Positions 10,617 to 54,100 of a stretch of 64,000 nucleotides of DNA are shown here, in pieces. Origin of the DNA: Massalongia carnosa (lineage: Eukaryota). Each line of letters starts with the position of its first letter. The stretch's first letter is position 1. Location of the stretch: positions 1,612,001-1,676,000 of the forward strand of contig OZ287084.1 of assembly GCA_965645245.1 (NCBI GenBank), given 5' to 3'. A program made the position numbers and the translations under genes. The notes under the pieces are model-generated. The model searched no databases and was not told the origin of the DNA. It was given only the letters and a program-made list of their open reading frames with translations.

Positions 10617-11611
10617 TATCAACGTCCAGGCTTCTTCTAACGCTTTCCAAAGTACCTCACGAACAGTTTCATCACTGCCGCTCACCAAATCTATGTTCGG
10701 GTTGACTTGATAGACGAGCTTTTTGAGCATATACCAAACGTGCTCGATGGGATATAAATCAGGTGAATAGGGGGGCCAATCGATGACCTCTATGCCGTTC
10801 TCATTGAACCATTCCATCACCTTTTTAGCCTTATGTATAGGTGCGTTATTCTGCATGAAAATGAGGCCCGGTTGCCAAATTCCAAGCAGATAATCGTTCA
10901 ATAATTCTATATATGAGTTCGCCGAGTACCCCATCTTCTTCGCAGCAAAATCACGAGCCAATTTGTAAAGATCTGACCTGTTATCTCCCCAAAAAGCTGC
11001 CCAGACCATGACACTGACTCCTTTGCCTTTGGGGATAGGTTGTATCATCTCTTTATTCCATTTTTCTTTCGGCAATCTGAACACCCACTGACGCTGTTTT
11101 CTTGACCCTTTTCCACCGAGCACTCATCTGACCATATAACTCTTGACTACTGCTCAAAAGTCTACTCACGCCGCAGCAAGCACCAATCCAATCGTTTCTT
11201 GGCCACCTCAGGCGTCAATAAAGGTCGTTTTTTAGCCACCTAGTTGGTTAAACCATACAGTTTGAGTGCCTGATGAATGGTCGTAGGACTGCAGCCGAGC
11301 CCCACTTCTAGTTTGATTTGTGCATAAGTGATTCGTGGATTGATTCGTGCATGCTTGATGATATAACGTCGATCGCGTTCTGACAGCACTTCAGGCCGTC
11401 CAGAACGTGATTTAGACACGCCGTCGTTGCGAATTGAGTGCTTCTGAATGGTGCTCTGCACGGTCGATTTAGTGAAATTAAGAGTCTCCCCAATCTCGGT
11501 CGGTGTGTGCCCCAACGCCTGGGCCCCAACAATCATACCACGTTGATATGGCGTCAATTCAGTGTTACGAGGCCGATTACCATTTATGGGGGTCAAAGAA
11601 GCACGAAGCAT
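10617..11611 (-). pseudogene. Tc1-family transposase (HTH plus DDE), disrupted
   Basis: ELTPYQRGMI, RSGRPEVLSERDRR, VMVWAAF, FMQNNAPIH, WPPYSPDLYPIEHVW. Stop or frameshift at 11124-11240. Confidence 0.92.
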
Positions 11612-11713
11612 GGTGAAATGATGAGGTGGAAGATGGGGGGTTGATGAGTTGAAAACGCGAAATCACGAAAATTACGGGTTGGGCCGCAGACTTTTGGCAC
11701 GGGACTATACATG

Positions 11714-11900
11714 TGTTACAGCGGTACTCAGTACTGCTAGCCAGCGGGCGTAATATGTACATGAGCGCCTAAGGAGGTACGGTGACGTACCGGGCGCGGG
11801 GCACCTATATGTAGTATAATAAGCGGTAGTGTCTCCATAGGAGAACTACCATAGTAGCCTTTTGGCTCAGTGGCTTAGGTGACTTGTTACCACTGTTACA
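11714..11900. mobile_element. Probable solo LTR (187 bp)
   Basis: TGTTACA...TGTTACA ends with an internal TATA-like tract. Flanking 5-mers differ (ACATG/AAAAG). Confidence 0.55.
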
Positions 11901-12083
11901 AAAAGAATGATATACGAAATATTAAAAAGATTTTTCTCAGCTCAAATTTCTTGTTAGAATATATGTATTCATCATACGAAGTTTCAAGACATCAAAATAA
12001 AAACTTAATGATTGGTAATTCAAAGCAGTGAAGGGGGTAAAAAGTTGTTGGGAAGGCTTTCAGAAACTTTTGACCTAGTACTG
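11901..12083 (+). mobile_element. 3' end remnant of a second Tc1-family element
   Basis: Ends ACTTTTGACCTAGTACTG|TA. Its reverse complement resembles 1517-1690 and it encodes a decayed (GW)YTKY* C-terminus. Confidence 0.75.
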
Positions 12084-12104
12084 TATGAGGAGTCTACAAC
12101 GTCA

Positions 12105-12196
12105 CTGTTATGTTACTGCTTTGTGACTGCTATAAAAGCAGGTAGACAACCCACATAGATAATTATCTTCAATAACAATCTTGCTACTATACTTAC
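12105..12196 (+). repeat. Dispersed ~90-bp repeat (copy 1 of 4), same family as the Ngaro terminus
   Basis: Core TGACTGCTATAAAAGCAG.TAGA.A.CCCACATAGAT...TCAAT.ACA; also at 17886-17972(-), 21224-21300(-, diverged) and 53326-53395(+). Confidence 0.85.
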
Positions 12197-12443
12197 ACAT
12201 GAATCATCATATTCAACAAATCCGACGGGTTTTGTAACCCGACGGGTTTAATTCAACCCGTTGCGACGTATTCCAGATACTTGTTTTCAATTCTATATGA
12301 AATAAAAATTGTTGCTATGTCAAAAATGCCACGAAACCCCTCTTCCTTCGTACCAAAAATATTTGCTATTGGTAATTCCCAAACTGCCAATAATCCTGAT
12401 TGTACCGATCTCTCGACCGTAAGGTTCTATCATTTGCTGCCAT

Positions 12444-13109
12444 CTAAGCGCCGTTGGGATCAAGACCAATCATGAGGTAATCATCACCAGTTCCAATCTT
12501 GATCTCGCCGCCTCTGGTGTCTGTACCTTGATCTCCCTTGCCCTGGCAGAAAACGCTCGTAAGCTGCTGATAAACGGTACTGCAAACGGTGTCCGTGAGC
12601 GAAGGGGCACTCGCGCTGTTGTAGAACCAGCGGAAGGTGGTCACGATCTGATTTCCGCTCGCTCCTGGTTTGCTGGGCGATTGCCAAACGTTCCAGGCTT
12701 TCTCCGCCACAGGCGCGCCAGGGACTGACTTTAGAAATGTGGAGCAGGCATCAGTGGCGAGAGATTCAATGGTGCTGCTGACTCCGTAGGCACCATTTTT
12801 TTCGCAGGCGTAGGATGCTGCATTGCCTGCAATCTGTCCAATATTGGTGAAGCCATCAACATCGGCGCTAGGACCGTGACGGACAACTACTCTTTTCGTA
12901 GAGCCTGGCTGGGCTGATGAGACGAGGTCGGCAGGAATAGTAGCCGTGCGCCCTCCATTTTCGGCTGGCCACCAGTCGATCTGGCCATTGGAATCGAGCT
13001 GACCCACAACAAATGAGATCGCACCGGTTGTTTGGGGTTGGGGTGCTGCCGAGCAAGAAAGGCTGTAGAAGCTGCCGGCAGCGAGAATGGTGACGATTGA
13101 AGTATGCAT
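12444..13109 (-). CDS. Small secreted Cys-containing protein (221 aa), effector-like, possibly Y3 glycan-binding-protein-like fold
   Basis: Hydrophobic N-terminus ending SCSA-AP, dibasic KR at 72-73, four mature Cys (102, 122, 176, 188), C-terminal TRGG...IGLDPNG. TATAAA on the minus strand at 13276-13281. The gene call is firm; the family is tentative. Confidence 0.8.
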   Translation of the reverse strand: MHTSIVTILAAGSFYSLSCSAAPQPQTTGAISFVVGQLDSNGQIDWWPAENGGRTATIPADLVSSAQPGSTKRVVVRHGPSADVDGFTNIGQIAGNAASYACEKNGAYGVSSTIESLATDACSTFLKSVPGAPVAEKAWNVWQSPSKPGASGNQIVTTFRWFYNSASAPSLTDTVCSTVYQQLTSVFCQGKGDQGTDTRGGEIKIGTGDDYLMIGLDPNGA

Positions 13110-15109
13110 AATATCGATGTTTCAGGCGAGGGAAATTGTGCTTTTCAGAAAGAAGTTGATTTGAAGGTATCGGCTTAAAGTGATGAAAAGTGTTTTTGAA
13201 AATGGCAAATTCAAAAGCTGGTAAATTGCTGTAATGAGTCTAAGCTTGTGGTTTTGATGAAGATTCAAAGCTCTCTTTATATCTTTGAAGGCCTACGCTC
13301 TGAAGCAGGCTTATGAGCACCATGATAAAGGCCAAGATACTCGATGATCCGGCTGTGTCATTCATCAGCTATTCGCAAGTTCTGAGACAGCCTGAAATGA
13401 TCGGTGGTCATCAATTATTTGATTGCAGTGTTGGGAGGCGTAGAGGATGTTATTTCCAGCTCGATGAAAGCGATTTGGGTGATTTCATTCGACGGACAGG
13501 GGGAAAGAGTTTCACGAACCCAACAGTCATCCAACGTACGTAGTAGACAATGTAAGACATTACAATGTACGGCTTAGATCCTCAGACAGCATTATGCAGT
13601 TGGGCTAAGAGGATTGGATAAAATTTGATATGCCAAATAGGACGTGAATCAGTCAGGCTTACGTAGCGTCCTTGCCTCACGTACCTAATCAATGATAAGA
13701 TCCCAGCTCATCAAGTAGATCAACCCAATGATCCCAAAGCCCACTTCAATAGTCCCTACGCTAACAGTATCGCCGTGCTTACCCTATGTACATCATCGCC
13801 AAGAGCTCTTGCGGGCTGTGAAGATTTTTGAAACGTTATACGCCGCATTCTCACAAGACTAGCTCAAGGTAAGAAAGGCCCACACTTCACTTAGGCTTTA
13901 CCTATGTTCGCTTCGTTCCGTGCCGTTCGTTTGCACCCAGTCGATGTAAATAATTCCTTCATCTCTCACTGTTAAAAAACGAGTAACCGATGCCAAATAC
14001 CGAAACCAGCTGACAAAGCAATTTGCATCTGCACTCGGCAAGAAAAGGCCTGTGGCGGTGGCAAATTGGTATGGAGTCAGAAATCGTATCGGAAGAGACA
14101 ACCGATGAGATGGGAATAGAGGCTTCTGGAATGGCAGCTACTTTTGAATTGTGCTCCTATTTGCTGACCACCGATGAGGTCATCTGGACTTTCGCCTCGC
14201 TTGGGCCAAGGCTGTGCTTTTGGGAACGACGGCTGTGCTGACGTTCTCGGGAACCTCTGCATACAAGCTGGGAAATCAGTGAATGGCTGATAATATTGTC
14301 TCTGAGGAAGCTCTACAAGCGTATTAGTATTGACGAAACATCAAGGGTCGTATCCCAAGTGTTTGCTGATCTGCTTCAGAGCAAAGCGCGAGTGTTACTA
14401 CTTATGTCCTACGAGGCTGTAGAAGAGGCTCACCCTTAGGATCTCGCTTTAATGGAAATTCTGATCAGGTCAAATATTTTAGTGCTAATGGAGCGTGCAG
14501 CTACTACCCCACGAGTCGATTGTAACCGGGAGTATCCAAGGTTTCCGAGAGGTTACCAATTCGGCTTAAATCTGGTCGATCAGTCTGTCAATACCTTTTC
14601 ACCCGACGAGGCCAGAGGATTGAGGAAGCGTCAATTGAATTGTATCACTTAATAGGCCATATTAGTTATTGAGCCTGTGAGCATTGCACCTAATATGCTT
14701 GCCATGACATTTGAGTATGTTATCGTCTCATTTTTCAACGTTATGATTTGGAGAAAATGGCTTAGAATGATAAATCACATTGGAACATTCCAGCTTGATC
14801 ATGTTCATGAATAGAGCGAATGGGCATGAATAAACTCCAAATTTCTCTTCAAGTTTTATGAAGGACTAGAATACAAGATGGATAACGATAAACTTCTGTT
14901 AGCTTTACAAAAAAGAATATGTCAAATATCTAATTTCCATATCGAAGAAACGTCCAGAAACCCTCCCCAATTCCAATAACCTATAATGTGCCAGTTAACC
15001 CAAACAGACTGAAGACTCGCTTTGCCACTGAACACACTTGTCAGAATACTTTGTACGCAAAGGCAGACGATGCATAACTACGAATAAGCAAGCAGCCAAT
15101 GCGATTGTC

Positions 15110-15724
15110 TTAAGCGGGGCTGGCTGGAAGATCAACAGGATCCCCTCGTTTCCAGATTTGGACAGGAGCTTGCGTGATATCATCAGGATCGATACGAACG
15201 ACTGAAGTGATAGCCCCATTCCGCATCAATGTGGGAAATTCATTGACCACCCAGATAGATCTGCCGATCCTAGGATCCCGCCCTGGCGAGATAAGAACAT
15301 AAGCTGTCCCAGAGGCGGCTGCGGCTATGGCTGTAGAGATGCGAGGGACGAGTTTGTCTTGTTCCGTTGGCTCAAAACCGCAGTTATCAAGCCATCCAAG
15401 CATATCGTTCCGGGATACCAAGCTACCATAGTAGTTGCCCCTGGGATCCAAAGTAGTGCTGAGTGAGAGGGCTTGCTGACTGGTGGCGGGCGCAGTGTAA
15501 AAAATTGTGTTATCCCCTGCACCTTGTGATTGCATGAAGGCGGCGAGGGTGCTCACGGAAGGACACGTGCCGCGTTCGAAGACTTTCTTGTCGGAAATTT
15601 CTTTGTTTTCGATTGGAGCACCAGATGCTGGAATACCAAATATATTGATTAGCATGAGGAAGGTAACGAATACCGACGCCAGACGGACGAGTCCATCCGC
15701 GAAAGAGCTTGTTGAGGATCGCAT
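15110..15724 (-). CDS. Secreted protein (204 aa), candidate CD38/ADP-ribosyl-cyclase-fold NAD(P)+ glycohydrolase
   Basis: Likely start is the ATG at 15724 (CAAAATG context). Signal peptide ending ASG-AP, pro-region ending ER. Motifs IFYT, ISTAIAAAASGTAYVL and SIWVVNEFPTL parallel the ARC-family FWS, S..FA..A.G.V.V and S.F..VE...L motifs. The gene call is firm; the function is inferred. Confidence 0.72.
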   Translation of the reverse strand: MRSSTSSFADGLVRLASVFVTFLMLINIFGIPASGAPIENKEISDKKVFERGTCPSVSTLAAFMQSQGAGDNTIFYTAPATSQQALSLSTTLDPRGNYYGSLVSRNDMLGWLDNCGFEPTEQDKLVPRISTAIAAAASGTAYVLISPGRDPRIGRSIWVVNEFPTLMRNGAITSVVRIDPDDITQAPVQIWKRGDPVDLPASPA

Positions 15725-16926
15725 TTTGCGAGTCTGTTGAGTTCCTTTCTTCGATGGGTTGGTGAGGGAGCTGGGCTGGGTTGAAGAGTGGACACAATGA
15801 TTTGTAAATGAGAATAATGATGCAAGGCAACACCTTTCGAATATGATCTGAAAGACGAACTGTACAATTGAGATCTCTCTCTCGACTGAAGTGCTGTTAT
15901 TTAGTTTGAAAAGTATTCGTCTTATGGCCTTTACATATTGAGAATGTGCAACCAGGATTTGCTTCAAAGCTAGACCCAAAGCCTCGTGGACAGCACTAAC
16001 TGAAATTTCTTTGTCACAGAGTATCAACGAGGTGCAGAAGACGAAACGCCAACATCATGGAGCAACATCAGCTCGATTATCTGCAAGGCGCAGCGAGCTT
16101 TGCCATGATCATCCATGACATGGACGCTACCCAGCCGCTGTGGACTGAAGTTCCTTCCATGCACGTAGAGGCTACAAGAAGTTTTAACTGGCTGTCGCCG
16201 TGGAGCTACGTGCTCCATGACCAGATTTGATTTAGCTGTGATTTGATTTAGCTGTGATCTGAGGCACAAGACCCATATTGACTCAGGTACAGGCTTGGTG
16301 TACGGCTTCAGGTGACCGAGACGTCAAGGCACGACGTCGACACCACCTTATGCTAATCGTAAGCTGCGTTAGTCGTTCTTCGGGGACCTAGGCACGTTGG
16401 AGGCATGGCGCGGAGCCGTTGTGCGAGTAGCGTGGTCTGAGGCTGAATCCCACGCCACCGAAACCAAAATCTTACGGGGTTCAGGTTAGAAAAGGCGCTA
16501 ACTTAGAAGCCCATTCTGATCAAGGGAAGTACTAACGGCGTTGGTGTCTGAAAGTCTGCAAATTGAGCTTCAAGGGAGGTTTGCGGTCTACAATCGTGCA
16601 TTCCTGCCGGGTACTGTACCACCTCCAGCTTATATTAGATCGCAACAATCGTTTCGAAGCAAGAGACGGGTACATTGTATCTCCTTACGTTTTCGTGATC
16701 GGCAGTTCTCTGAAAACCACCTTACAGTGTGGGTCTGTGGGAAGTTGATTGACCGGATAATCTTCGCATAAGCTGGTTCTGCCGGGACCTGTCACCGTAC
16801 AAGTAACCACATTGCCTGAGTCATTTCTTTGAGAATACTTTGACAAAAACACCTAAATAAGTTTTAGGAGACTCTTCCACTAAAGCAGTCGCTCTCGATA
16901 ATCAGTGACTGTCTTCAATCCTCAGT

Positions 16927-17763
16927 ATGTCCATGTCCATAGCGAAGGAGCAGCTCCTAGCAGCCTGCACTAATGACGACACTTCAAGACTGCGAGAGCT
17001 TCTGCAAGCCCCCGCCACCGCTGACAACATCAAAACATCCAGACCGAAGGATCTCGTCCAATTGGATCCATCGGTGACCGATGAGATGCTAGCAAAAGCA
17101 TGCCAATTCAACAATATCGAGACTGTTCAACTCATCCTGCAAACATATCCTAAGACAAACGTCACAGAGGAAGTCATTCGTCATGTCATCACCACGAAAT
17201 CCATTCTTCTCTACGACACCTTAAGACGTCATGACCCGAACATCGTTCAAATGACTATCTACGATGGCCGCGAGTCCCAGCTTGGTCGCGCCCTCAGCAC
17301 CCCGACTACGCCAGAATACATCGAGTTCCTTTTATCCTCGGGAGTGAATCCAAACCCCCATATCGACAGCGATGCTATTAGTCCGCTATGCCTAGTTGCT
17401 TTGCCGTGGCAATCGAGATCCATAGAATTCTGTACGATTTTGATCCGATATGATGCGAAGCTGCGCGGTTCTGGAACATTGGCTGCCGCGGCCATGCATG
17501 GGCAGAAGGACTTAGTAGAATTCTTACTAAAGCAGGGGGCAGATGTGAATGACGTTGTTCTTGAATCTGGTTTCGGTCATAAGTGGCCTCCATTGCACGC
17601 GGCTGTGGAGGCGGGACAAAGCGATGTTGTTTTGATTTTCTTGAATCAAGGAGCTGATTGTGATATTTTGGACGAGAAGAAGCGCACGGCGCTTGCCATT
17701 GCTGAGGCGAAGGGTGATGCGAAGATGATTGACCTGCTTCAAAATTATAGGAGCAATCGCTAG
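16927..17763 (+). CDS. Stand-alone ankyrin-repeat protein (278 aa), no signal peptide
   Basis: GTLAAAAMHGQKDLVEFLLKQGADVN, PPLHAAVEAGQSDVVLIFLNQGADCD, TALAIAEAKGDAKMIDLL, plus degenerate N-terminal repeats. Confidence 0.92.
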   Translation: MSMSIAKEQLLAACTNDDTSRLRELLQAPATADNIKTSRPKDLVQLDPSVTDEMLAKACQFNNIETVQLILQTYPKTNVTEEVIRHVITTKSILLYDTLRRHDPNIVQMTIYDGRESQLGRALSTPTTPEYIEFLLSSGVNPNPHIDSDAISPLCLVALPWQSRSIEFCTILIRYDAKLRGSGTLAAAAMHGQKDLVEFLLKQGADVNDVVLESGFGHKWPPLHAAVEAGQSDVVLIFLNQGADCDILDEKKRTALAIAEAKGDAKMIDLLQNYRSNR

Positions 17764-18130
17764 AAACGCTCGGAAGTCGACGGTCTTGGTATCGGATTCA
17801 GTACAATCCGAGGCTTCGCTAATCGTCCAAGTTATCATTGACCCTTATATATCTCTTAAACCTGATAGATAGTATGATTCACGTCTAGGTATAATAACAT
17901 GATTGTCATTGAAGTTACTCATCTATGTGGGCTATCTATCTGCTTTTATAGCAGTCATACAGCAGTCATATAGTAATTCGCGGGCTCATAATTTCTATCT
18001 ATGTTTGGGCAACTCTCCCCTCGCTGCTGCCCTGCTGGCGCTCAGTTTTGCTGAGGGCCCCTCCTGTAATGGCTTTGTTTTGGCAGCAGTGAGGGGAAAA
18101 ACTCCCAACCCCAAGCAGGGAATGGCCCAC

Positions 18131-19180
18131 CTACGGTGGTGCTGTTCGGAACGTGGCGGGGGGTCGTTGAAAACGAAGGGAGGTCGCTATTAATTGGTCC
18201 GGGTGAGTCTGAATGTACAATTGATACGAGTCTGATTTCCATCGGCCCAAGGTCTGAATATCTTCCTCTTGCAAGCCCGAGTTCTTGGCCGTTGTTGCTG
18301 CACCCCGTCGAAACGAATGACCCGAGTAATTCCCTCGGACGCCAACTGCCCGGAGACCACTCCGTAGGGCCTGCACTAAATATTCACGAGTGAAGGTCTT
18401 TTCCTGAACCTGGAACAATGGGGACGATGCTGGTTTCGGGAATCGGGTAAACAAGTTCCGAATGGAGGTGATCGAGCATGCTTCGTCGTTTGTTGCTGCG
18501 ATATAAATTTTTCTACCCCTTCGAAAAGGATCCGTCTTGGATGACGGTAGGGAAAGAATTATTCGATCCGCCTGTTGATCCACCGATTATCTAGTTAAAT
18601 GCCATGAATCGAAGCTAGAGTCTTGCATTTCTCCCTGTTTGTAGGTAAATTCTCCCGCTCCTAAGAGAATGCGATGCTGTATGCCGCATGAAGTGTTGCC
18701 TGGACCTCGTTAGTAGTGTCTAGTTTCCGTAGCAATTTTATCAAAATGTTGCGTGTGATTGGTAGCCTTTCTCGTCTTTCTGGTTCACCGTGCATTCGTT
18801 TTATTCCCGCAATTATTCTGTCTAGGACTGGATGGTGAAAGACCTCCAGGTCCCCCAGGCCCATGTCCAATTGGCTCGATCGTACTCCAGCTAAATAGTT
18901 TTTGATGGTTTTGGGGCGGAGCCCTCGCTGACCCAGGGCGGCTATCCATGCCGAAAGGCTTCGAATTGTCGCTGGAAAGGGAGGGAAATTCGTTGCTAAT
19001 TGACAGTAGGTCGTGTAGCTTTTCCGGGCTGCATCGTATAGCCCTCGAGTCCTAATTGCTATGCCCCACCATAAATATCTGGCTGCTTGGCGATCCAGCG
19101 GAACCTCGTTATACCAAGTCTCTGGAGGGTCGCGGGCGAGTGACGCCGTTATTTGTTCGATGAAATGCCCTGCAGGTTGG
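18131..19180 (-). pseudogene. Tyrosine recombinase of the Ngaro element
   Basis: TIKNYLAGVRS, RLPIT, LPSSKTDPFRRG, GHSFRRGAAT, LGRWKSDSYQLY; broken near 18584-18663. Confidence 0.9.
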
Positions 19181-20770
19181 GTGGGGTAATTGTCAGCGAT
19201 TTTTCCAAATAGTCCTCGGGACAACCAATCTGCTAAGAAATTTTCTTTGGTAGACAGCCAGTGTGGTTCAATCTCAATGTCATATATTGCCGCCATCATG
19301 GCGATATTCCGGAGGGGATGCATGGCCCCGCCCCGAATGGAGGTCTTTTTGACCCCGGACATTACAGCAAAGCTGTCGCAATAAAGAAGAAGATGAGCTC
19401 CCTTGCACATGGGGAGCCACCGCCGTATGGCGTGCAGAATCGCTGTCATCTCCTTCTCATTGATATGTTTGGCTCTGAGCCTGGTGGTATAACGTTCAGA
19501 AACCACTTGCTCAGCGGGCAATGTGTGTGTGGTCTGACCACCTTGAAGTATGTATGCCCCGATTCCGAAGTCCCCACTGGCATCCGTCCAGAGACGGAGC
19601 AGGGGTCTCGAAGGGCTAATAATGTGTATGCCGTTCCATAATGGAAGGAAATGATGCCACCATAAAAGATCAGCTTTTATGTGAGAATTGATATGAATAA
19701 ATGGGCGCGCGGGCCCGATTTTGCTGTTGAAAAGGCGTCGGAGAAAAGTTCTTCCCGGTACCACCACTTTGGCTGCAAAGCATAGAATCCTAGTAGAGTG
19801 TCTAGCTCGTTTCTGGTTATCGTGGATTTATTCAATGTTGATTGGACGAGATCCTTAGCTTTCTGAAGCTTTTCGGCCGGTAGTCGTGCCTGCATCAGGT
19901 GTGTGTCCAGCTCTATGCCCAGGAATTCGACTACCGTGCCTTGTTTATTTTTCTTTTCGTTGAATTTTAGGCCGAGGTCTGAACAATTTTCGGCAAAGTT
20001 CCGATCGAAGGATTCCGCATCGGGAATAGCGCGAACGATTCCGAGAAAATCGTCCAAGTAGTGACTAACTTCGCCATTTGTTTTATTAATCATCATCATC
20101 ATCCAGTTCAGACCTTTCGCGAATAAGTCAAACAAGAAGGGAGACGTCCTAAGGCCGAATGGAAGAAAGCGTTCTATCCAGTAAACCCCGTTCCAACAAA
20201 AAACCCAGCAACCACCAATCGCTTTGCGCCACTGGAACGTGGCGGAAGGCATCGGCTAAATCTCGTTTGATCAGTACGCAGTCCTTGCCCATTCTTCTGA
20301 CGCCGGCGATGGCTTCGTCGAAAGTGATATATTCCAGAGCGCCCCACTCCTCGGGAATGAAGTCGTTCACCGAATTACCCTCGGGGTGGGAGAGGTGATG
20401 AATACGGCGCCATCCTCCGTTTGCTTTGAGGACTAAGCCTAAGGGGGAGCCTATATATTTGGCTGGTAGGGTGGGCACCTCGATCAATCGGTTTTTGGCC
20501 CTTTGGTCCTCTACGTCCATGGTCAGAATTTCTGGGGCCTCGTTGGCCGAGGCCAGGTTGCTGCTTAGAATGAACTGATCTGGGCCGGTGTAACCAATTT
20601 TGGCCCCGTACACGATTATATAGTGAATGGTCTGTTTGTAAAGTTTGTCCGGATGACCCATGAGGTGAAGTTCCCAGCCTTCTTTTCTTAGAGGCCCTGA
20701 GGGTACGATTGCTGATTTATCTATCAGCGGATAGGGGAACCCTTCGGCGATATGATCAAATGGGCCGGCT
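19180..20770 (-). pseudogene. Ngaro RT-RNase H
   Basis: WRRIHHLSHPEGNSVND, DLADAFR, LPFGLRTSP, HYLDDFL, WTDASG, HINEKEM, ADWLSR, spread across three frames. Confidence 0.9.
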
Positions 20771-21223: not shown

Positions 21224-21300
21224 TGGTAGGTATAATAGCATGATTGTCATTGAAGGTGTGGATTATGTGAGCTATCTACTTCATTATATAGCAATCAAAT
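21224..21300 (-). repeat. Diverged copy of the Ngaro-terminus repeat
   Basis: TAGGTATAATAGCATGATTGTCATTGAAG matches 17886-17914 at all but one base. Confidence 0.8.
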
Positions 21301-51159: not shown

Positions 51160-54100
51160 CCTCAAGTTCTGCCAGTACTTGTTCTGATGATCAAAACCGC
51201 GCTGCGCGGTGTGAACTCCACTAGATGAATTCATGTGAAGTTGTCTGATGAAGGAGAAGAATTTGACGTGGGTAAGCGGTTTGGTCAGTCCGTCCGCTAC
51301 CATGTGTTCTGTTGAAACATAGGTGAGGTCTATTCGACCCTCTGTGACCTCATTCCGTATGAAGTGATGCTGAATGTCGATGTGCTTAGTCCTTGAATGT
51401 AAGACGGGATTATTGGCCAGTGCTATAGCACTCTGTTTATCACCTTTCAATGCTATAGCGCCTTCCCTTTCAAGTACATTCACTGTCGGAGTAGCATCAT
51501 CCTGCATCAGGCTGAGTTCTGTCATCAATAAGCGTATCCATATGGTCTCCTTAGCAGCTAAGATGAGTGCCATATATTCGGCTTCTGTGGATGAGAGGGC
51601 AACGGTTTTCTGTCTTTTTAAGGCCCAGCTGATTGGTCCATTGTTCAGCATGAAGACGTATCCGGAGGTGGACTTGCGGTCTTCCTTGTCACCGGCCCAA
51701 TCAGAATCGGAATAGCCCTGTATAGACAAATCTCCGCCATCAAAGGTAATGCCTCTGTCTCTGGTTGCACTGAGATATCTGAGAATCTGCTTGGCTGCCT
51801 CCATGTGTGATTTGCCAGGATTTTTGGCATGTCGGCTGACCACTGTGGTCGCGTAGGCAATGTCAGGGCTTGTTTCTATCATAGCAAACATGATGGAGCC
51901 GACGATTGCTTGATACTGTTTAATGTCTGATTCTGAGGCCTGGGATTCATTTCTGAATAGACTGCCTTCTTTCATTGGGGTGGTGGTAGTTTTCGCGTTC
52001 TGCATATGAAACTTCTCCAGGACCTTTTCGATGTAGGAAGATTGAGATAGTTTGATTGTTCTGTTATCACGATTTCGTTCTACATTTAGGCCTAGATAAT
52101 GACTGATTGAGCCCATGTCCACCATCTTGAACGCAATGTTCAGTTGTTTCTTGACTTCAGATATCATAGGAGATCCCTTTGGACCTATGATGTTCAGATC
52201 ATCAACGAAGGAGGTAACAATTGGACCTCTTATTCCTGCCGAAGAGGAGAAGATACTATGATCTGCGTGAAGTTTGGACAGACCCAGCTTGGTAAGTAGA
52301 AATTCGGATAGCCTTTCATACCATAGGCGTGGAGATTGTTTCAGGCCATAGAGAGCCTTGTTCAGTTTGCAGATCATGCCCGCTTTTTCATATCCTTTGG
52401 GCATTTGGACGTAAATCAATTGAGCTATTACCCCATACAAGAATGCTGTGACGACATCAAGCTGTTCGATGTCCAAGTCATGATGAGCTGCTAAGGCAAA
52501 CAATAATCGGAAGGCCATTGATTTCACTACGGAGGCATAGGTCTGTTCGAAATCTACTCCGTACTGCTGGAGATAGCCTTTCACCACCCATCTGGATTTG
52601 TACCGTGTGATATTTCCATTGACGTCTCGTTTCAGTTTGTATACCCATTTTCCACTGAGAGCAGTATGATTGGGCTCCATATCCTCGGTTATGACAAGAG
52701 TCCATGTTTCGTTCTCGAGAAGACTGTTGTGTTCATTGTCCATGGAACGACTCCAGCTTTCTGAATGTGGACCTTTCATAGCTTGATGGTATGTCTGAGG
52801 TTCAGCTATGTCGAGTTGCGACAGTGCGTCATAGTCTTCCAATCCTGATGATCCTTCCTTTTCCAAGGTTCTGGCAAGAAGAACGAGTGGATCCTCTGTG
52901 TCTATGTCATCGTATGTAGGAGTATAATTGGGTTCATCTAAAGCTGTGTCTGATAGAAGAGACAATGCGTGTTCTATCTGAACATGCTTTCTAGGTCTGC
53001 CACGTCCACGTTTTGGAATCGTTGTGGGGGATGAAATGACTGTTGATTTTTGTTGAGAATTGAGCCGAGATGTCTGCTTATTAATAAGAGCACTAACCGA
53101 ATGCGGATCAAGCACTAAGGGTTATTTCGGCCGTGGCAACACATCACTAATCATTCGAGATGTCATCCATCTGCCAGGGGAGGCAAAACGGAATATATTG
53201 TTAGATGGTGAGGCTACCATTGGTTAGATGGTCAGGCTACCATCAATATAGGCATCCATCGCGAGTCACACGGGTGTCTACCAGGCACCTATGGAGGTGC
53301 CTAACAGGCAGCTATGGGAAGCCTACAGCATTACTGCTGTGTGACTGCTATAAAAGCAGGTAGATAGCCCACATAGATAATAACCCTCAATGACATGTAT
53401 GCTTCTTATTTGCCCTACTTCCGTTTCATGATCAATAGCCTGGTGTTTCAACAATTTTGATGGAGTGACTGTATCGGGAGTCATGATGGCCTCGTATGTA
53501 GGAACGTTGGTCTGGTCTTTGGAGATGGCGTCTTCGTGAACGCGCAGATCTTTGACCCTGATGACCCTGTGGTCCTTTTCCAGAAAGACTCGATAGATCG
53601 TGCATCCATCGTACCCACACAAGACTCCGCGTTGGGCCCGAGGTAGAAATTTGGCCGATTTGCTGTTGGCGACTTTGCGTTCTTCCTCATGAATGAGGAC
53701 ATACACGGTTGATCCTAACACTCGCAGATGATTCAGAGGAGGTGACTTTGACTCGTAAATTTCAAATGGGGTCTTTCCGGATAAAGCATTTGTAGGTCTG
53801 ACGTTTTTTGTGTGAACCATAGCTAAAACCACCTCTGTCCATAGGTAGTCCGGAATGCCTCCTGCAATGATGGTACATCTAGTCATGTCCATGATAGTTC
53901 TGCCTGTTCGTTCAGACACACCGTTTTGTTCCTGTGAATACGGTGCGGAGGGTTCAAACGTTATCTCTTCTTTCAGGAACCAATCATCCGATTTCAGACT
54001 TCGAAGTTCTGTGCAGAAATCAGTTCGAAAGATGTTTATTGGCTTGCTCTTTCCTGTCTTGTTCTGAGCTAGACTGTAGTATGTCAACAGATGATCAAAC

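Follow-up and report, generated by a model that had tools for sequence, protein, structure and literature searches.

A candidate enzyme-inhibitor gene pair in a fungus: a putatively secreted ARC-fold protein encoded head-to-head with an ankyrin protein

Adjacent genes for a toxin and its immunity protein are a defining feature of bacterial warfare, and the locus described here raises the question whether a fungus keeps a comparable pair on its chromosome. The locus is part of a 64,000-nucleotide stretch of the genome of Massalongia carnosa (assembly GCA_965645245.1, contig OZ287084.1, positions 1,612,001 to 1,676,000 of the forward strand); the whole stretch is referred to as the window, and positions are counted from its first base. 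An earlier inspection of the letters (the sequence-only reading) had singled out two divergent genes at 15110-17763 and proposed that a secreted enzyme with the fold of the ADP-ribosyl cyclases (ARC) and CD38 is encoded head-to-head with an ankyrin protein conferring immunity. Following this proposal up, we consider it credible that the two genes represent an apparently undescribed fungal enzyme-inhibitor pair resembling bacterial "toxin-immunity" pairs. The fold, an invariant glutamate, the gene order and its conservation are observations. The interpretation that we prefer, and to which we give slightly better than even chances, is a two-gene module composed of a secreted ARC-fold enzyme cleaving nicotinamide adenine dinucleotide or its phosphate (NAD(P)+) and a cytoplasmic ankyrin protein that neutralises it. 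The locus is organized as follows (aa, amino acids):

15110..15724, minus strand: ARC-family gene encoding a pre-pro-protein of 204 aa, intronless, with the stop codon inside the span; supported by homologues and a gap-free full-length alignment
15725..16926, no strand: intergenic spacer of 1,202 bp between the divergent genes, presumed to be a shared promoter region
16927..17763, plus strand: ankyrin-repeat gene encoding 278 aa, intronless, without a signal peptide; supported by Pfam, an AlphaFold2 (AF2) model and orthologues

In the list of open reading frames (ORFs; translation table 1, ATG starts), the start codons of the two genes point away from each other across the 1,202 bp of the spacer, whose role as a shared promoter is presumed. 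Judging from their relatives, both ORFs are real genes rather than chance ORFs, because homologues exist for each: 75 cluster representatives for the ARC-family protein and seven full-length relatives for the ankyrin protein. End-to-end alignments of either protein with its relatives contain no intron-like gaps. The initial description of two intact, apparently intronless and divergent ORFs separated by a spacer of about 1.2 kb is thereby borne out. The adjacency of the genes is not an assembly artefact of the window, since a single contig of 2,554 bases from an independent sequencing run (X4) spans both; it covers 15350-17903 with 20 differences and includes part of the ARC gene, the entire spacer and the entire ankyrin gene.

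The identity of the 204-aa protein emerged from family-based searches. In an exhaustive phmmer search with a limit of E<=1e-3, the 75 cluster representatives were retrieved, the majority with lengths of 160-260 aa; named relatives come from Hypholoma, Lentinula and Colletotrichum, and the family includes basidiomycetes. Searched as a single sequence against the PDB, the protein obtained a best E of 0.47, to an entry entitled "ADP-ribosylcyclase toxin". When an alignment of 44 family members (A1; a closer alignment of 12 sequences is designated A2) was used as profile, the ARC toxin of the Pantoea ananatis type VI secretion system (9ro8) was matched with E 2e-12 and Tac1 of Streptococcus parasanguinis (9ouf) with E 3.1e-12, and dozens of chains of CD38, BST-1 and the Aplysia cyclase followed at E 4e-4 to 5e-3. 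The AF2 model computed with A1 has a mean predicted local distance difference test (pLDDT) score of 90.2 and comprises a compact alpha/beta domain starting at about residue 52. For this model, Foldseek ranked 9ro8_A (E 6.7e-8) and 9ouf (E 1.1e-6) at the top, followed by the Aplysia cyclase (E 7.7e-4) and then CD38. Superposition by VIA-align gave a Z of 14.3 with 9ro8_A, at a root-mean-square deviation of 2.9 A and with 123 of 127 residues aligned, as well as Z scores of 13.6 with 9ouf and 8.2 with CD38 (3ofs_D). The 204-aa protein belongs to the ADP-ribosyl cyclase/CD38/Tox-ARC fold, and the call that had been made from the sequence alone was correct, as judged by profile search, Foldseek and VIA-align.

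Six of the ARC relatives (P0029, P0042, P0048, P0051, P0061 and P0076) are considerably longer, with 636-1,164 aa, and match in 3-11 separate stretches, which suggests that they carry tandem ARC-like domains. A scan of prokaryote genomes with the single protein, which detects close relatives only, yielded 281 pattern matches, none of which encodes a relative. Within the 204-aa protein and its gene, the following parts can be distinguished:

15620..15724, minus strand: predicted signal peptide, about aa 1-35, with a hydrophobic core at residues 12-31 followed by P-A-S-G-A-P; the cleavage site is putative
15572..15619, minus strand: predicted pro-region, about aa 36-51, ending in F49-x-R51; based on family conservation and low pLDDT, processing being putative
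15113..15571, minus strand: catalytic domain of the mature protein with the ARC/CD38 fold, covering aa 52-204, in which C54 and C115 are invariant; based on the profile search against the PDB, Foldseek and VIA-align
15239..15241, minus strand: codon of the glutamate E162, which is predicted to be catalytic, is found in 44 of 44 sequences and aligns with the glutamates of 9ro8 and CD38

E162 aligns with the glutamate in the motif NVELP of 9ro8 (E356 of the ARC toxin, ARCtox) and with that in the motif SVEVH of CD38, which we take to be E226, the catalytic glutamate of this enzyme. W158, located four residues before E162 and common to 9ro8 and 9ouf, is nearly invariant in the 44-sequence alignment, and so are F75, G96 and P164. 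S130, which aligns with a serine of the corresponding CD38 and 9ro8 motif, is invariant in 12 of 12 close relatives. In ARCtox, substitution of W273, E299, W323 or E356 by alanine abolishes toxicity (PMC12605009). The four residues correspond to W35, E61, W85 and E118 in the aligned 9ro8 chain, the spacings of 26, 24 and 33 residues being in agreement, and they are represented in the fungal protein as follows:

ARCtox W273: Y76; aromatic residue retained, all 12 close relatives having Y or W
ARCtox E299: G100; replaced, the family column being variable (G/S/D/P/A/E) and misalignment of the loop being possible
ARCtox W323: V126; replaced, V/A/I/N in the close set
ARCtox E356: E162; retained, invariant in 44 of 44 sequences

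Several results weigh against the proposed module, some concerning the enzyme and others the pairing; the former are best considered here. Two of the four residues essential in ARCtox are replaced, by G100 and V126, and therefore the chemistry may differ or be weaker. The second active-site glutamate (ARCtox E299; CD38 E146) has no match, as G100 occupies the aligned position, and the tryptophan pair (ARCtox W273 and W323) is not matched either, Y76 and V126 being found instead. It is the second glutamate that in CD38 controls how the cyclic intermediate is hydrolysed (PMC12356396), and since this residue is absent a different product spectrum is possible. Furthermore, the 204-aa protein matches no Pfam family at E<=1, including Pfam's own ARC model, and the curated threshold of PF02267 (Rib_hydrolayse) is not reached, weak matches being obtained in 9 of the 44 relatives (best E 3.3e-4). 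Both the two replacements and the missing Pfam ARC match would be in keeping with the view that the protein did not cleave NAD(P)+ at all and used another substrate, or that it were a binding protein or effector that merely keeps the fold, in which case "toxin" would be a misnomer. However, E162 is invariant, W158, F75, G96 and P164 are nearly so, and S130 does not vary in the close set, a pattern of conservation that is typical of an active site under selection and makes a non-enzymatic or differently specialized protein very unlikely in our judgement. From homology, we infer cleavage of NAD(P)+ by the 204-aa protein.

The N-terminus carries features of an exported protein. In the AF2 model, a helix at residues 8-29 is followed by a low-confidence linker (residues 30-50), and pLDDT in the pro-region is 55-62. 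In all 44 ARC relatives, the sequence opens with a hydrophobic part and continues with small residues. Neither F49 nor R51 varies among the eight closest sequences, and both stand just ahead of the first invariant cysteine; at this place, many of the wider relatives exhibit KR or RR, again right before that cysteine. The two cysteines C54 and C115 are invariant in the close relatives, consistent with a disulphide formed outside the cell. These characteristics support the signal peptide and the pro-peptide attributed to the protein earlier, whereas secretion and the sites of cleavage are what we infer from them.

The gene on the other side of the spacer encodes a different kind of protein. Within residues 129-260, Pfam detects Ank_2 (E 3.7e-19) and Ank (E 2.8e-17), and the bit scores clearly surpass the respective cut-offs, given in parentheses: Ank_2 69.5 (27.3), Ank 62.3 (21.1), Ank_3 50.3 (22.3) and Ank_4 50.8 (22.7). 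According to the AF2 model (pLDDT 87.1), the entire 278-aa protein is an ankyrin-type solenoid, because a continuous stack of helix pairs runs from residue 7 to residue 277. Inspection of the sequence revealed no N-terminal hydrophobic segment, and the initial description as an ankyrin-only protein lacking a signal holds. Searches with the 278-aa protein yielded nine matches at E<=1e-5, including the seven full-length relatives with 45-100% identity and E<=1e-60, after which the score drops abruptly. The exact 278-aa sequence is present in a public protein collection, and one named relative originates from Lepraria neglecta. One sequencing run that contains 76% of the sampled words of the window is labelled a lichen metagenome, and a lichen-forming ascomycete is the probable source.

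Whether the two proteins may bind each other was addressed by complex prediction, using the mature ARC domain (aa 52-204) and the full ankyrin protein in three runs, together with three controls in which the partner was replaced twice and the enzyme once. The predictions reached a score (ipSAE, interaction prediction score from aligned errors) of 0.79, with 0.79, 0.80 and 0.78 in the individual runs, as compared to 0.01 for the best control and 0.00-0.01 for both kinds of control. At least 80% of the contacts agree between the runs, and the pLDDT of the partner is at least 85. As calibration, 51 of 78 solved complexes attained the mark applied to this score, as did 2 of 108 mismatched pairs; for eukaryotes, it was attained by 39 of 65 solved pairs that have no similar complex in older structures and also by 2 of 126 unrelated pairs. 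The mismatches above the mark, four in all, scored 0.34-0.59.

On the enzyme side, the predicted interface is formed by Y76-A78, Y99-S101, V126-S130 and R155-W158, i.e. by the positions matching the active-site residues of ARCtox and by the stretch leading to E162. The ankyrin side is centred on one loop:

17254..17274, plus strand: ankyrin loop T110-I-Y-D-G-R-E116, predicted by the complex model to occupy the catalytic cleft of the ARC-fold protein

The contacts predicted with the lowest error connect ankyrin residues 111, 112, 115 and 116 with V126, I129, S130, Y99 and I157 of the ARC domain. Accordingly placed at the putative catalytic cleft, the interface is what makes the prediction informative. 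The complex model supports binding of the enzyme by the ankyrin protein with an interface at the cleft, both the binding and its site being predicted by the model. Modelling of the complex had been suggested at the outset as a check, and its outcome favours binding.

Conservation of the gene pair was assessed by a scan of metagenomes with one peptide pattern derived from the 12-sequence alignment A2, which returned three loci (L001-L003); the relatives P0009 and P0095-P0097, known from JGI data, were not among them. In L001 and L002, an ankyrin orthologue (56% identical) is located upstream of the ARC gene (57-60% identical), on the opposite strand and about 2.1 kb away. As L001 and L002 are 99.98% identical to each other, they represent one additional taxon. 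L003, whose ARC gene is 43% identical, comprises 559 bases upstream of this gene, too short to show a neighbour. The pair in L001 is flanked by genes for Peptidase_M3, ALG10 and Metallophos proteins on one side, and by a piggyBac-type fragment, GINS Psf2, DUF2196 and a rhodopsin-domain gene on the other. None of 13 ORFs from these flanks has a tblastn match in the 64-kb window, and therefore the pair is the sole content common to both regions. A third taxon is probably indicated by two proteins from the same source, the ARC relative P0001 (68% identical) and the ankyrin relative P0081 (73% identical), each of which is found on exactly one contig of 27,831 bases; the notion that both reside on the same contig is derived from the equal size. 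Among the longest contigs recorded for the other ARC and ankyrin clusters, no further length coincided, and Lepraria neglecta was named for the ankyrin orthologue only. The test for linkage called for by the sequence-only reading thus turned out positive, the pair being kept in another taxon at about 57% protein identity and between unrelated flanks, within a narrow clade.

The results on the pairing that speak against a module are the following. Head-to-head adjacency is conserved in a narrow clade only, and directly in one further taxon. The ankyrin orthogroup comprises seven full-length relatives, as opposed to 75 representatives including basidiomycetes for the ARC family; it apparently does not reach Colletotrichum, Lentinula and Hypholoma, where the ARC family occurs. 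With an ARC family so much broader than this orthogroup, the pairing cannot extend to all of its members. Comparison of the window spacer and flanks with L001-L003 by blastn and tblastx detected no similarity beyond the two coding regions. In the complex test, 7 of 44 neighbouring genes drawn blindly also scored above the mark. Residues of the predicted interface are not significantly more conserved than the remaining ones, neither in the ankyrin protein (0.69 versus 0.64, p=0.19) nor in the ARC protein (0.55 versus 0.51, p=0.23). Finally, I111, G114, R115 and E116 of the ankyrin loop are invariant in nine of nine orthologues (alignment A3), but this is no specific evidence for binding of an ARC protein, because ankyrin repeats in general have a consensus similar to the D-G-R found in this loop.

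These observations would fit a secreted ARC-fold enzyme and an ordinary ankyrin gene that are unrelated neighbours, kept adjacent by inherited microsynteny, with the predicted complex being a false positive. In addition to the linkage seen directly in a single further taxon, the unremarkable conservation of the interface, the narrow ankyrin orthogroup and the frequency at which unrelated eukaryotic pairs (2/126) and blind neighbours (7/44) attain the mark, it has been argued that secreted fungal NADases need no immunity factor (Stromland et al., PMC7955114). However, the score of 0.79 exceeds the range of 0.34-0.59 covered by the passing mismatches, the controls remained at 0.00-0.01, and the predicted interface coincides with the catalytic cleft and not with some arbitrary surface. 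Moreover, the other genes of L001 are absent from the 64 kb, leaving the pair as the only shared content. We therefore regard unrelated neighbours as unlikely. For the toxin-immunity pair as originally proposed, the balance is mixed: the fold, the linkage in one other taxon and the predicted binding at the cleft are in favour, whereas the replacement of two of the four ARCtox-essential residues and the narrow range of the linkage are not.

Binding as such does not make the ankyrin protein an immunity factor. It could instead act as a chaperone or as a subunit with a part in regulation or trafficking, for example one that holds the precursor before translocation or controls a membrane-anchored CD38-like cyclase making messengers such as cyclic ADP-ribose (cADPR) or molecules resembling NAADP (nicotinic acid adenine dinucleotide phosphate). 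The binding predicted by the complex model is also consistent with this role; absence of the second glutamate (G100) makes a cyclase-type product conceivable, the N-terminal hydrophobic stretch of about 20 residues could anchor the protein in this clade, and a non-toxic bacterial ARC protein that produces cADPR, Nac1, exists (PMC12356396). On the other hand, signal peptides in the wider family are short, of the classical kind and followed by KR/RR, its members share two invariant cysteines, and the contact in the model lies over the active-site cleft, as if to occlude it. Such a regulatory partnership appears quite unlikely to us.

In the module that we prefer, the 204-aa enzyme with its pro-peptide would be exported and most likely cleave the nicotinamide-ribose bond of NAD(P)+ outside the cell through E162. 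There, it might deplete or convert NAD(P)+ or act on other members of the lichen community. The producer would be endangered by enzyme that fails to be translocated, is retro-translocated or re-enters the cytosol, because bacteria and yeast are killed by ARC domains in their cytosol. The cytosolic ankyrin solenoid could capture such stray enzyme through its concave loop face, with the loop at residues 110-116 covering the catalytic cleft at Y76, Y99-S101, V126-S130 and S156-W158 and thereby neutralising the enzyme. In this scheme, toxicity of the fungal enzyme and protection by the ankyrin protein are deduced, in the same way as secretion and NADase chemistry.

The precedent for this scheme comes from bacteria, where ARC domains are toxic in the cytosol of E. 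coli and yeast, each is neutralised by an adjacent immunity protein, and these immunity proteins have been modelled with a loop in the catalytic cleft (PMC12605009, PMC12356396). Tac1-Tci1 of S. parasanguinis (9OUF) and ARCtox-ARCimm of P. ananatis (PANA_2924/2923, 9RO8) share with the fungal pair a compact ARC fold of about 150 aa, a catalytic glutamate and a neighbouring gene whose product is modelled over the catalytic cleft. The differences are equally evident. The bacterial toxins are delivered by LXG, PAAR or CdiA modules, whereas the fungal protein, from a eukaryotic host, has a signal peptide and pro-region only. The immunity families named for Tox-ARC are Imm74 and Imm63, whereas the fungal partner is an ankyrin solenoid in which ankyrin-type families are the only significant Pfam matches. 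The bacterial genes are co-directional in an operon, whereas the fungal genes diverge, and two of the four catalytic residues are replaced in the fungal protein. Hence the pair departs from the definition of polymorphic toxin systems (PMC3482391), by which an N-terminal trafficking or delivery module such as LXG, PAAR, RHS or CdiA and, for Tox-ARC, an Imm74 or Imm63 immunity gene would be expected; it lacks both, and the genes do not form an operon.

Fungal members of the family as such are not new. Zhang et al. (2012; PMC3482391) tabulated Tox-ARC in Ascomycota and Basidiomycota and proposed acquisition from bacteria; these proteins belong to the same family as the 204-aa protein, and the available part of that paper gives no function, partner or neighbourhood for them. 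Imm74 and Imm63 are the only immunity families named there for Tox-ARC. The same source describes bacterial Imm-ank, which likewise is an ankyrin protein encoded beside a toxin domain and presumed to bind it; it is listed with Tox-AHH, Tox-GH-E and deaminase toxins rather than with Tox-ARC, and we liken it to the fungal partner by the type of repeat. The main texts of the two JBC papers of 2025 on bacterial ARC toxins mention neither fungi nor ankyrin. In the literature that we searched, no fungal ARC enzyme with a known function, or with an ankyrin protein or another inhibitor, was found. To this extent the earlier statement that no such module has been described in fungi holds, with the qualification that fungal Tox-ARC homologues themselves have been listed since 2012 (PMC3482391). 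What appears to be new is the pairing of ARC and ankyrin in a fungus; the fungal Tox-ARC family and the bacterial ARC toxins with their immunity proteins were known.

Exported hydrolases that would kill the cell from its cytosol and are kept in check there by a blocker of the active site are known from other settings, such as SPN-IFS of Streptococcus pyogenes, barnase-barstar, and the secretory RNases with the leucine-rich-repeat ribonuclease inhibitor. The latter is a eukaryotic repeat solenoid like the ankyrin partner, and none of these pairs is a fungal chromosomal gene pair. The same logic of exported enzyme and cytosolic inhibitor applies to TNT-IFT of M. tuberculosis (mentioned in PMC7955114), which involves different folds and organisms. 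Among fungi, the NADases of the TNT fold, AfNADase and NcNADase, are also secreted or surface-exposed NAD(P)+ glycohydrolases with proposed roles against hosts or competitors, while their fold is unrelated (PMC7955114). For these, no homologue of an immunity factor was found and secretion was argued to make one unnecessary (Stromland et al. 2021, PMC7955114), which adds to the points against the proposed module. The killer toxins of yeasts provide fungal examples of secreted toxins with co-encoded self-protection (PMC13442484); these are carried by plasmids or viruses, rely on other chemistries and, in the available text, have no ARC or ankyrin component.

An extension of the module remains tentative, and we consider it rather doubtful. 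The pair may constitute a chromosomal toxin-antidote cassette of eukaryotes, for which a bacterial ARC domain was acquired and equipped with a secretion signal, while an ankyrin immunity protein evolved convergently with Imm74. The cassette would travel as a unit between unrelated settings, a housekeeping neighbourhood in one taxon and a sea of transposable elements (TEs) in the other, and would serve lichen conflict, with competing fungi, bacteria or the photobiont as targets, or would represent a selfish element, that is, a self/non-self or poison-antidote element.

If the module exists as proposed, eukaryotes, too, guard against their own exported NAD-degrading enzymes, and ankyrin repeats can be put to use in inhibiting ARC enzymes. 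Members of the fungal Tox-ARC family, listed without a function since 2012, would be potent enough in the cytosol to need a guard, and the pair would be a counter-example to the published view that secreted fungal NADases require no immunity (PMC7955114). It would further offer a natural, protein-based scaffold for inhibitors of CD38-fold enzymes and be a first candidate for an effector system in lichen-forming fungi.

The two genes reside in a single-copy island within a window filled with TEs. Of the 34 long ORFs scanned in the window, 17 have TE-type Pfam domains, namely Ty3, copia reverse transcriptase (RT)/integrase, long interspersed nuclear element (LINE) endonuclease-RT, Mutator-like element (MULE), Tc1/mariner DDE_3 and hAT; the remaining 17 have no Pfam match at E<=1e-5, and a non-TE domain was found in none of the 34. 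A self-BLAST of 12000-20000 against the 64-kb window detected no repeated DNA in 12208-17873, in line with the TE-free spacer and TE-rich surroundings described initially. The island around the pair is delimited as follows:

13872..14339, no strand: left edge, formed by a short repeat that separates the pair from the next gene of single copy; derived from contig depth in run X1, the bin limits being approximate
17874..17972, no strand: right edge, first repeat and TE end, found by self-BLAST; starts 110 bases past the stop codon of the ankyrin gene

The segment 17874-17972 is 83% identical to 12109-12207 in inverted orientation, and further matches are located at 21227-21297 and 53330-53395. 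Public contigs mapped onto 12000-19000 give low and even coverage over 12234-13871 and 14340-17849, while the summed depth, which is a hint of repeats rather than a copy number, rises 20- to 100-fold above this level in three places, namely 12000-12233, roughly 13872-14339 and the part that starts at 17850. In run X1, the summed depth rises at 17850 from about 857 to about 83,000; in the two bins of 13872-14339 it amounts to 21,862 and 3,601, as compared to about 860-900 on both sides. By self-BLAST, the 13872-14339 repeat has no second copy in the 64-kb window.

The repeat copies of about 70-100 bases at 12109-12207, 17874-17972, 21227-21297 and 53330-53395 are probably TE termini, and two of them, the inverted copies at 12109-12207 and 17874-17972 (83%), bracket a 5.7-kb island with three non-TE genes. 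In L001, a fragment of a piggyBac-type (DDE_Tnp_1_7) transposase at 11400-12065 on the minus strand lies about 800 bases downstream of the ARC gene, and the pair thus borders mobile DNA in both genomes. A joint linking 17196 to 17987, seen in one contig each of X1 and X4, skips 790 bases and would remove the 3' part of the ankyrin gene; its short side measures 21 letters, below the guide for reliability, and it may be a repeat artefact. A hypervariable locus of the allorecognition type was considered and set aside, since the 20 differences in the 2,554 bases of the X4 contig carrying the pair do not exceed what neighbouring single-copy contigs show (23 differences in about 1,620 bases and 16 in 1,164 bases).

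The third intact gene of the single-copy island, at 12447-13109 on the minus strand, encodes 221 aa with a signal-like N-terminus, several cysteines and no Pfam match, and has no counterpart in the metagenome loci L001-L003. A feature search of the ESM Atlas with its product gave two clusters from ascomycetes, an unnamed one at 0.92 and one called "Ecp2 effector protein domain-containing" at 0.91, which we take as a lead only. The TEs of the window have retained long open frames, including Ty3-type pol frames of 1,209 and 1,073 aa, copia RT, LINE endonuclease-RT, MULE, DDE_3 and hAT, and the GC content of the window ranges from 0.40 to 0.56 without AT-rich blocks. These long open frames and the lack of AT-rich blocks suggest that TEs were recently active and that decay resembling repeat-induced point mutation (RIP) is limited in this region.

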